30,285 bases of DNA from a virus (taxonomy: Duplodnaviria > Heunggongvirae > Uroviricota > Caudoviricetes). The number at the start of each line of letters is the position of its first letter. Position 1 is the stretch's first letter. Of this stretch, positions 12,001 through 15,000 are shown one piece after another. Location of the stretch: the IMG/VR virus record IMGVR_UViG_2703718804_000003; one strand, given 5' to 3'. The position numbers were made by a program.

Positions 12001-15000
12001 ATCGGAGGCAATCGCTCTGGCTGGTGGTCAATCAGAATTGGCTCGGAAGCTCACAGCCAGCAGCGGTCATTTAGTAAAGCAACAACATGTCTGGAACTGG
12101 TTGAACAGAGAAAAGCGTCCCCCTGCAAAGCTCTCGATATTCATTGAAAAGACCACTGGCATATCAAAAGAAAAATTACGTCCAGATATTTTTCAAAAGA
12201 TTAAAGATTCATCAGATGAAAAGTAACCACAGTTTTAAGGAGATAGCCGTGGGTAAGCATCACTGGAAAATAGAAAAACAGCCTGAGTGGTACGTGAAAG
12301 CTGTCAGAAAAACTATCGCGGCGTTGCCGGGTGGTTACGCTGAAGCTGCTGACTGGCTGGATGTAACAGAGAACGCATTATTTAACCGCCTTCGTGCCGA
12401 TGGCGATCAGATTTTCCCGCTGGGATGGGCAATGGTTTTACAGCGCGCAGCTGGCACTCACTACATTGCGGATGCTGTCGCACAGTCTGCTGGTGGGGTG
12501 TTCGTATCGCTTCCTGAAATTGAGGAAGTAGAGAACGCCGATATAAACCAGCGCCTGCTGGAAGTCATCGAACAGATCGGGAGTTACTCAAAGCAGATTC
12601 GTTCGGCAATCGAAGATGGGGTAGTGGAACCGCATGAGAAGACAGCAATTAACGACGAACTGTATCTTTCAATTTCGAAGCTCCAGGAGCATGCAGCACT
12701 GGTCTACAAAATCTTCTGCTCTCCAGAAAAGAGTAACGCCCGCGAGTGTGCAGCTCCGGGCGTCGTGGCGTCGATTGCTTCTGGTTGTGGAGAAACTAAC
12801 GCATGAATAGTTTAACGGCAAATAACCGTTTGTCGCAACAGCTGGTGGTCAGCGTCGCTGAACACCTGTTGTTACGGCATGAATGCAGATTACCAAATCA
12901 CCTGGCTGTAAGTAACCACAGAGAACTTTACCTGACTGTGGGGGGCGAGTTGTGCAGGAACTTAACCGCTGGTTTCGTGACGGAAGAGGACTTTATGTTC
13001 ATGTTATTCGTTGGGAGCCAGAAACACAGCGCGTTATCTATCTTCGCAAAGACTACCCGCATGAGTGCTTTAGTCCTTTGTGGAAATTCAGGCGTGATTT
13101 TGTTGAGTGTGAAGGACCACCAGCATATTGATTCTGCAATTCCGGGACGTTACACTGCTCAAGCACCTTATAAAGCGGGTGCCGGGCGTGGAAACCCGAA
13201 ATTCAATATAGAGCACAACCGCGCTCATGCGGTTTTTTCGTGTCATGAGCATCGTTACGCCCAAATTATGGTGGGGCGTGCAGGGCCAACTTCGGTTGGG
13301 CCGGGTTCTATGTTGACCGGTATTTCCACCCCTGTACGTCTCACCACCTATATGGTCGTGGAAAGCCTTGGTGGTGAGTTCATTGAATTCAACATAGGGG
13401 CTGTCACCATGACTACTCTCCCAACCCAATCTCACCCTGAAATCACGATTATCAATGGTCGCGTTGTCACCACATCTCTTGCAGTAGCTAATTACTTTAC
13501 TAAACGGCATGAGCGGGTTTTAGATAGAATTAGAAACCTCGAATGTTCCGCTGAATTTACTGAACACAATTTTGTGTTAAGTGAATACACCGACGCATCA
13601 GGCCGCAAACTCCCTTGTTACCAAATCACCCGCGACGGTTTTGCGTTTCTTGCCATGGGCTTCACTGGTAAACGTGCTGCCCGGTTCAAAGAGGCATACA
13701 TAAATGCCTTTAACCAGATGGAAAAACTGCTTTCAAAGCCATCCACGCTGAGCGATGCCGCAGATAACGCCAGCGTGCTTTACTCCCACCTGTCGGTAAT
13801 CCACAAGGTCTGGCTGCAGCAGCTTTATCCCATGTTGGCAAAAGCCGAATCCCCGCTGGCTGTAAGTCTGTATGACCGCATCAACGACGCGGCGCTACTG
13901 GCCAGTCTCATAAATTTGTCGCTGAACCCTTCAGAGGCAAGGGGGCGCAAATGATCCGGAATATTTTCAAACGTTTTACCAATCAGACTTTCCGTTGTCC
14001 TCGTCCGGGTCAGTGGTACACCACGCCTGCAGGGCATGTTCTACGTGTTAGCCTGGTTGACCGTGAATGTCAGAAGGTGATTTGTGAACCGCTGGGCCGT
14101 AATTACCGCGTCAGTATGCCGCTTATAGCCTTTCGCTCCGGAAAAAACATGAAGCATCTCGGAGGTGCAGCATGAGTATGGAGCTGATGGTTAAAGCGAT
14201 GAAAATTCGAGTGGGTAATCCATTGCGAAAACTGGTTCTGATCAAGCTGGCTGATAATGCCAGCGATCAGGGTGAGTGCTGGCCCAGCTACCAGCATATT
14301 GCTGACCAGTGCGAGATTAGCAAACGTTCTGTGATGAATCATATTGCGGCCCTTTGTGAGTCCGGGCTGGTAAAAAAAGTCACCCGGAAAGGTGAAAAAG
14401 GTAACTCAAGTAATATCTATCTCCTTCATCTTGATGGTGCAGGAGATTCACTAGGGAGTAGTGCAAATAATTCACTATCTGGTGCAGCAAATTCACCAGG
14501 TAGTGCAGGAGTTGCACCAGGGGGTAGTGCAGGAGATTCACCCAGAACCAGTCACTCTTTTGAACCAGTCAAAGAACCAGTCAATGAACCAATAGCTGTT
14601 GGTGCATCTGCTGATGAGTCTGTGCGAGTTCGTTCAAACCGACCGGAATACTCTCCGGAGTTTGAGCAGGCATGGCTGGCATATCCCAAACGTGCTGGTG
14701 GCAATTCAAAATCTGCAGCCTTCAAAGCCTGGAAAGCCCGTTTGAATGAGGGGGTAAACCCCGAAACCATGCTGGAAGGTGTGAAACGCTACGCGGGCTG
14801 GGTATCTGCGATGGGTAACAGCGGCACACAATTTGTGAAACAGGCTGTCACGTTCTTTGGTCCGGATCGTCATTTCGAAGAATCTTGGGAAGTTCCTGCG
14901 GTATCTGTAGCCGGACGTGAGGACCCGTACTTCAAAGCCAGTTACGACAACGTGGACTACAGCCAGATCCCGGCAGGATTCAGGGGGTGATCATGAGTCT

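Follow-up and report, generated by a model that had tools for sequence, protein, structure and literature searches.

A candidate theta-type replication origin within the initiator gene of a lambdoid Stx1a prophage

Where does replication start in a lambdoid Stx1a prophage whose initiator gene has no recognisable lambda P-like partner? Here, we addressed this question in IMG/VR virus record IMGVR_UViG_2703718804_000003, a 30,285-nucleotide stretch of Caudoviricetes DNA (hereafter the window) that covers the left arm and early region of such a prophage, with a focus on its replication initiator gene and the tandem repeats inside it. Our analysis suggested that positions 14395-14600 are a theta-type replication origin embedded in its own initiator gene, a reading to which we assign a probability of roughly 75%. 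The predicted system works like ori-lambda, but without an O-family initiator, a P partner or a clear AT tract. Typing of Stx phages uses their replication regions, and toxin output follows phage replication; the reading would provide an explicit origin map for Eru6-type phages and many relatives (SfV, cdtI, mEp460 and Stx2c phages).

Iterons in the initiator gene and an adjoining invariant block

A preliminary description had placed two sets of direct repeats at 14436-14600 within the initiator gene, and both a repeat finder and Tandem Repeats Finder reported the two arrays, the first with a period of 21-24 bp (14434-14546) and the second with a period of 12 bp (14562-14591). The first array consisted of five 19-bp sites (consensus TRGTGMA-N5-TKCACYA, 14435-14543), each with inverted 7-bp arms flanking a 5-bp centre, with start-to-start spacings of 24, 21, 21 and 24 bp. 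As had been described, the repeats encode a linker of the initiator, namely residues 89-141 (GAGDSLGSSANNSLSGAANSPGSAGVAPGGSAGDSPRTSHSFEPVKEPVNEPI), which fall in a predicted disordered region between the winged helix and the helical domain. The features of the gene and of this array are as follows.

14172-14990, plus strand: replication initiator gene, 272 amino acids, from the listing of open reading frames (ORFs); the candidate origin lies inside it
14172-14435, plus strand: segment for residues 1-88, the winged-helix DNA-binding domain
14395-14435: flank to the left of the iterons, AT-rich (71% A+T) and the least stable 40 bp adjoining the array
14435-14453: iteron 1, TGGTGCAGGAGATTCACTA
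14459-14477: iteron 2, TAGTGCAAATAATTCACTA
14480-14498: iteron 3, TGGTGCAGCAAATTCACCA
14501-14519: iteron 4, TAGTGCAGGAGTTGCACCA, whose arms form a perfect palindrome
14525-14543: iteron 5, TAGTGCAGGAGATTCACCC, which abuts the invariant block

A 15-nucleotide core, GTGCANNNNNTKCAC, had five exact matches, all within 105 bp, compared to approximately 0.1 expected on both strands by a back-of-envelope calculation; there was no further exact match in the 30-kb window, and the other matches carried one mismatch each. One of these near-iterons, GTGAAGGAGATACAC (15144-15158), lies about 600 bp downstream in the PerC-like gene, and since about 4.5 chance matches are expected in the window at one mismatch, it may be meaningless. 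As a single strand, the iteron array was more stably folded than its shuffled versions (z -2.3 to -2.7), in line with its palindromes. The left flank stood out in nearest-neighbour stability (z = 2.9 over 11900-19300), and the AT profile averaged over 33 relatives had a peak there too. No DnaA boxes (TTWTNCACA) or IHF sites were found in 13900-15300, and the GATC sites present in the same interval were not clustered at the candidate origin. Five consecutive G (CCAGGGGGTAGTG) make up the last inter-iteron spacer (14519-14525); in relatives this spacer was five G or five C and never mixed, for which DNA bending and an extended binding site are possibilities.

For tandem repeats within a gene, the relevant null is a coding repeat and not chance. 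We compared the array across 80 diverse loci in genomes of Gammaproteobacteria, 80 viral contigs that were nearly identical, and a dozen phage records. Among 84 GTGNA-N5-TNCAC sites from 21 diverged genes, the arms carried 2 bits per position and the centres approximately 0.2-1 bit. Spacings in this set were 21 bp (25 times), 22 bp (6), 23 bp (6) and 24 bp (21), which means that copies of one DNA unit often differ in reading frame; in Xenorhabdus, for example, a unit is translated as VVKEFH beside PSENSAP. Relatives with N-terminal domains approximately 50-65% identical carried repeats of different sequence at the same place, each of them dyad-symmetric, with both arms changing together. Arm classes among relatives included GTGCA..TGCAC, GTGAC..GTCAC (Erwinia and Vibrio D67), GGGCA..TGCCC (Stx2a_F403 and Pseudomonas) and TGCCA..TGGCA (Klebsiella), as well as CTGTGC..GCACAG in ZF40 versus CTATGC..GCATAG in BUCT709. 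These classes tracked the recognition-helix classes of the initiators (KRSVM/RRSVI, RSTVK and KSAV[RK]), and the linker peptides were unrelated from one class to another (GAGDS, PMPPKS, PSEKSAP and GGESPAP). Initiators at least 86% identical to that of the window carried 1, 2, 4, 5, 7, 8 or 9 sites; five was by far the commonest number (a cluster with 2852 member sequences), and the cdtI phage has eight. Taken as sequence evidence, this is the signature of iterons, that is, of tandem sites in co-evolution with the dimeric protein that binds them, and the coding-repeat null is rejected by these comparative tests.

The second array belongs to a different kind of element, which lies directly against the last iteron in every relative and has the following parts.

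14541-14578: 38-nucleotide family-invariant block, CCCAGAACCAGTCACTCTTTTGAACCAGTCAAAGAACC, which encodes PRTSHSFEPVKEP
14545, 14562 and 14574 (span 14545-14583), plus strand: three exact direct copies of GAACCAGTCA
14586 (repeat region to 14595), plus strand: degenerate fourth copy of GAACCAGTCA, GAACCAATAG

The preliminary description had counted the GAACCAGTCA copies as part of the iteron cluster. The five dyad sites fit that description, but the GAACCAGTCA repeats do not: the first two copies fall inside the invariant block, the number of 12-bp units (GAACCAGTCAAx) varied from 2 to 4 among close relatives, and by these comparisons the repeats are part of the family-invariant block and not initiator-specific iterons.

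Conservation of the block was examined in 33 sequences whose N-terminal parts were less than 85% identical pairwise and whose hosts ranged from Vibrio and Shewanella to Pseudomonas and Enterobacterales. Codons 124-136 (CCC AGA ACC AGT CAC TCT TTT GAA CCA GTC AAx GAA CC) used a single codon almost everywhere, whereas invariant winged-helix residues used 2-6 codons. The fraction of the top codon was 0.96 in the block versus 0.50 in conserved winged-helix codons (Mann-Whitney p = 1.3e-7), and third-position identity was 0.92 versus 0.53; Arg125 was AGA in 33/33 sequences, whereas the invariant Arg19 and Arg72 used 5-6 codons. In a sequence logo, conservation began at the last iteron and collapsed past GAACC. 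The rare changes in the block were mostly non-synonymous (ACC>ATC, AGT>TAT, TTT>TCT/TTA and GTC>ATC). An exact 24-nucleotide core of the block was present in 120 IMG/VR stretches, and in 113 of the 113 that could be evaluated it stood in frame behind the N-terminal domain of this initiator family only. In the family mean, A+T content rightward of the iterons had its local maximum at the block, and on both strands the block folded less well than shuffled sequence.

From this pattern we conclude that the block acts as a cis-acting DNA element common to initiators with different iteron specificities. Its function is probably unwinding or helicase entry, the likeliest role since it occupies the place of the lambda AT tract. 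Binding to AT-rich single-stranded DNA has been reported for lambda O, and Rep proteins of plasmids bind the repeats of their unwinding elements as single strands (PMC7466680, PMC4980987); for this reason, it is a reasonable guess that the block is read by the nearly invariant N-terminal 48 residues of the initiator. A nucleotide-fixed block beside fast co-evolving iterons is unusual, and it separates the initiator-specific part of the origin from a shared part.

It is unlikely, in our judgement, that the block is instead either a partner-binding peptide motif (PRTSHSFEPVxEP) or a homology patch for recombination between N- and C-terminal modules. The peptide is indeed conserved, the mosaic junction between the modules lies just after the block, and the block is not strongly AT-rich. 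However, a peptide motif would not account for invariant codons, including the rare AGA for arginine, in hosts from Vibrio to Pseudomonas, and substitutions that are mostly non-synonymous are the opposite of what peptide selection gives. As for a homology patch, second-order selection is unlikely to fix 38 nucleotides while flanking synonymous sites are saturated.

Several other candidates for the block were tried and rejected. A hairpin or single-strand initiation signal was discarded given that the block had less structure than shuffled sequence, and a known RNA was discarded since the only Rfam match in 13500-15600 was to a microRNA and attributable to chance (E 0.11). Pairing of the block with the complementary ACTGGTTCTG (14231-14240) was likewise rejected, as the codons concerned (KLVLI) lacked nucleotide-level conservation. 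A consensus scan of 14000-15000 found no internal promoter in or near the block, and in the searched literature the block sequence matched unrelated polymerase chain reaction primers only.

The initiator protein, its C-terminal tail and helicase loading

The gene had been called O-like, which holds for its layout but not for its family. In a Pfam scan the initiator matched HTH_36 (residues 17-67, E 1.8e-11), with DnaD_N below threshold, and had no match to Phage_rep_O (PF04492) at E ≤ 0.01 or to Rep_3. It was also matched by PHROG 270, 'replication initiation protein' (E 2.6e-88), and a sequence search of solved structures gave no hit and no lambda O homologue. By these profile searches the protein is an analogue of O and not a member of the Phage_rep_O family. 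AlphaFold2 modelled the winged helix confidently (residues 1-88; predicted local distance difference test, pLDDT, 74-93), with a recognition helix at approximately residues 51-64 and a beta-hairpin wing at 67-85, and the top fold matches of this model were the DNA-binding domains of CRP/FNR and the N-terminal domain of DnaD. Residues 91-157 were predicted to be disordered (pLDDT below 50), and the C-terminal helical domain, modelled alone, had a pLDDT of 72-91. The two C-terminal features are given below.

14649-14861, plus strand: segment for residues 160-230, the C-terminal helical domain with the motif YPKRAGGNSK...FFGPDRHF
14961-14987, plus strand: DnaT-like C-terminal tail, SQIPAGFRG

The C-terminal helical domain is presumed to be a docking module for replisome loading. 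Residues 147-245 were matched by the PHROG profiles 'DnaD-like helicase loader' and 'primosomal protein', and a second protein search with this domain returned mostly fragments and no family name. The N- and C-terminal halves of the initiator recombine independently, with the junction just past the block, and members of the family were partnered by DnaC-like plus DnaB-like genes, by a DnaB-like gene alone, by lambda-P-like genes, by another replication protein, by a primase-helicase or by nothing.

The window falls in the last of these groups. A prophage of the bovine E. coli strain ARS-C301, which is 100% identical to the window across 25 kb, has no annotated helicase, loader or primase gene, so that host DnaB, DnaC and DnaG would be needed; a profile search downstream of the initiator also found none of the three, with PerC-like and Dam genes there instead. 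The preliminary description's statement that no P-like loader or helicase gene follows the initiator was thus upheld by both profile search and annotation. It had further suggested that the initiator may recruit host DnaC and DnaB, and to the lack of an annotated phage helicase or loader can be added the loader genes of relatives and the DnaT-like tail. The C-terminal domain recurs at approximately 70% identity in phiP27 and in the Eru7 phage Stx2_14040, and is also found in Aeromonas phage AsXd-1, where the initiator has 69% full-length identity and its gene retains five iterons; each of these three phages has genes for a DnaC-like loader and a DnaB-family helicase directly after the initiator. 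Relatives with the same domain beside DnaC-like and DnaB-like genes, together with the tail, make use of host DnaB/DnaC more plausible.

The initiator ends in ...YDNVDYSQIPAGFRG and E. coli DnaT in ...SEPDSQIPPGFRG: the tail SQIPAGFRG is identical to SQIPPGFRG of DnaT in 8/9 residues, and both stand at the very C-terminus. In 105 enterobacterial DnaT proteins the motif [S][EQ]PDxxIPxGFRG (IPxGFRG) was essentially invariant. The resemblance to E. coli DnaT is confined to this extreme C-terminal tail; the DnaT domain (PF17948) was not found over the body of the initiator, of which the last 9 residues alone match, and homology between the C-terminal domain and the C-terminal domain of DnaT was rejected (hhalign probability 4.5%). 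Annotations of relatives as 'primosomal protein I' probably stem from the tail alone.

A longer shared tail unit, EDPYFKASYDNVDYSQIPAGFRG, starts at 14919 (14919-14987). Kati and mEp460_4F5 combine a lambda-O-like C-terminal domain with an identical 23-residue tail and have PerC-like and Dam genes, but no P, after the initiator. The initiators of Tritos and POCJ13, of other architectures, end in ...ISEPDTEIPPGFRG and thus have the same tail, and relatives that encode their own DnaB-like helicase have different C-terminal ends. A downstream helicase gene accompanied 0/16 tail-bearing initiators compared to 18/51 tail-less ones (p = 0.0036, a value that is inflated and indicative only, as the tail set is mostly close relatives). 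Some tail-bearing initiators keep a DnaC-like loader, and the tail is therefore linked to a missing phage helicase and not to a missing loader. The tail thus occurs on several unrelated initiator architectures, none of which, as sampled, has a downstream phage helicase gene. The mode of DnaB/DnaC recruitment by DnaT has been stated to be unresolved, with its extreme C-terminus undiscussed (PMC13377028, PMC5778457), and the tail offers a concrete handle on how DnaT and these phages recruit host DnaB-DnaC. We regard the DnaT-like tail as a lead and not as a mechanism. Together with the nucleotide-invariant block, it appears to be what is new here beyond the preliminary description.

Comparison with ori-lambda and other origins

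The locus had also been said to mirror ori-lambda, and comparison with the lambda record bore this out in position, size, dyad symmetry and spacing. In that record, four dyad-symmetric 18-bp iterons lie at O codons 117-145 with spacings of 20, 24 and 23 bp, followed by a 78% A+T tract with the lowest stability in the region (z 3.3). As in ori-lambda, the candidate origin lies within the initiator gene between the parts for the DNA-binding and partner-binding domains, belongs to an early rightward operon, and has sites spaced by approximately two helical turns. Lambda and lambda-type Stx origins (933W and P27) share with it an array of 4-6 tandem 18-19 bp dyad sites spaced 20-24 bp apart, and in both systems the number of iterons varies between phages: lambda has 4 and lambda-type Stx phages have 6, and two suffice for lambda unwinding in vitro (PMC7466680). 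The differences from lambda are an initiator with an HTH_36 match in place of Phage_rep_O, the lack of a P gene, and a nucleotide-invariant 38-nucleotide block where lambda has its AT tract.

The arrangement also resembles that of theta plasmids (RK2 TrfA, pPS10 RepA, F RepE and R6K pi), in which tandem initiator sites lie beside an unwinding element; plasmid unwinding elements hold short direct repeats, and some initiators bind these in single-stranded form (PMC4980987). Plasmid iterons, however, are asymmetric and serve Rep monomers with paired winged-helix domains, whereas those of the window are dyad-symmetric. In addition, unlike plasmid iteron origins, the candidate origin has no DnaA box, its initiator has no Rep_3 match, and it lies inside a coding sequence.

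Several points weigh against assigning an origin to 14395-14600. The right flank of the iterons is 59-61% A+T (z ~1.3) compared to 78% (z 3.3) in lambda, and less stable stretches occur elsewhere in the early region (12186-12226 and 16897-16937). All five iterons of the window lie in one reading frame, whereas those of lambda lie in three, and the frame argument therefore rests on relatives. In the searched literature, neither binding, unwinding nor autonomous replication has been reported for this initiator family. The inflated p value for tail and helicase gene belongs here too, as does the tail partner, which is not given in PMC13377028 or PMC5778457.

In place of an origin, the sites could bind the initiator for regulation (autorepression, a transcription roadblock or handcuffing copy control), with replication starting elsewhere, for instance in an AT-rich intergenic stretch. 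We consider this improbable. It would fit with the least stable DNA of the early region, which is at the two stretches named above and not beside the iterons, and plasmid iterons serve both initiation and control (PMC4980987). On the other hand, the window has no exact copy of the site elsewhere, a nucleotide-constrained block lies against the last iteron in every relative, and the arrangement is that of lambda, where initiation occurs at this place (PMC7466680). A coding tandem repeat that only builds a flexible Gly/Ser/Ala linker, with no cis-acting role, is very improbable: the single frame of the five copies at spacings of 24, 21, 21 and 24 bp, the predicted disorder and a copy number that drifts as slippage-prone repeats would are in its favour, but the arms are fixed at synonymous positions (GCA, TCA and a T as third letter of the preceding codons), amino acids from the iteron centres vary freely, relatives have 22- and 23-bp spacings and other frames (VVKEFH versus PSENSAP), the two arms change symmetrically, and the linker peptides of relatives are mutually unrelated.

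If 14395-14600 is indeed the origin, early rightward transcription from a cro-side promoter would both make the initiator and traverse the origin. The five iterons would be occupied by dimers of the N-terminal winged helix, with each arm serving as one half-site and the centres of the arms approximately 12 bp apart, and the bound dimers would assemble a nucleoprotein complex like the lambda O-some. Strain in this complex may open adjacent DNA, most likely the invariant block, whose A+T content is moderately high and whose single strands lack structure; opening could alternatively occur at the AT-rich left flank. The C-terminal helical domain and the DnaT-like tail would then draw in host DnaB-DnaC, either directly or by way of a host restart factor, after which host primase and DNA polymerase III would take over.

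A more specific and rather doubtful proposal is a one-gene replicon, in which the block would serve sequence-specifically for unwinding or helicase entry and be kept family-wide beside private iterons, and the IPxGFRG tail would be the motif by which DnaT engages DnaB-DnaC. In this case, either the near-invariant N-terminal part of the initiator or a conserved host factor would recognise the block in single-stranded form. If true, such a replicon would plug a phage origin directly into the host replication-restart pathway, and the phage would indicate which surface of DnaT recruits DnaB/DnaC.

Prophage context and neighbouring genes

The genes stx1A and stx1B lie downstream of Q, which identifies the window as a Stx1a-converting prophage. 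Its other features are listed below.

2183-3469, minus strand: integrase gene
11156-11842, minus strand: cI-like repressor gene
11978-12226: cro-like gene
12144-12806: cII/YmfL-like gene
12803-13954: Rha plus Ash regulator gene
13951-14175, plus strand: 74-amino-acid ORF, matched by PHROG 1153 and without Pfam or NCBIfam match
14987-15481, plus strand: PerC-like gene (PerC-family, YfdN-like)
19784-21010: stx1A/B, downstream of the Q antiterminator gene

Past the PerC-like gene the order is Dam methyltransferase, LexA DNA-binding domain protein, RusA, KilA-N, DUF968 and Q. The initiator gene was 98-99.6% identical in Stx2a_1447/WGPS2, many Stx2c phages, cdtI, SfV, mEp460 and others (99.6% over 100% of its length in AP012537.1). 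In Stx2a_WGPS2, which defines the 'Eru6' replication region as its type phage (BMC Genomics 2022, PMC8951638), the gene homologous to the initiator is annotated as 'replication protein'. The window has the features of an Eru6 region, namely a Rha/Ash gene and a gene for a helix-turn-helix protein after cI/cro and identity to the type phage, with which it shares the order cI, cro, cII-like, Rha/Ash, small ORF and helix-turn-helix protein. That study typed the region by genes only, described no origin, iterons or loader logic, and stated that nothing was known about the replication of Eru phages (PMC8951638).

The 74-amino-acid ORF overlaps the start codon of the initiator gene, and its homologues travel together with the initiator in close relatives. 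It was rejected as a universal partner that reads the block, since homologues were found in close relatives only. At this position, ZF40 and BUCT709 carry ORFs of 222-225 bp that are not homologous to it, suggesting that the position of a small gene before the initiator is conserved across phages despite non-homology.

On the other side, the PerC-family gene overlaps the stop codon of the initiator gene. In Kati, mEp460_4F5 and others, a PerC-family gene always followed initiators with a DnaT-like tail, and in the cdtI record, where the PerC-like gene is unannotated, a PerC-like stretch was still detectable. The early-left region of the window contains 39 N (masked or unknown bases) at 6210-6248. 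Lastly, a 108-amino-acid protein encoded at 16131-16457 (plus strand) has a LexA DNA-binding domain only, without a peptidase domain; its gene sits between those for Dam methyltransferase and RusA and is conserved in cdtI, Kati, mEp460_4F5 and PhiR63_1.

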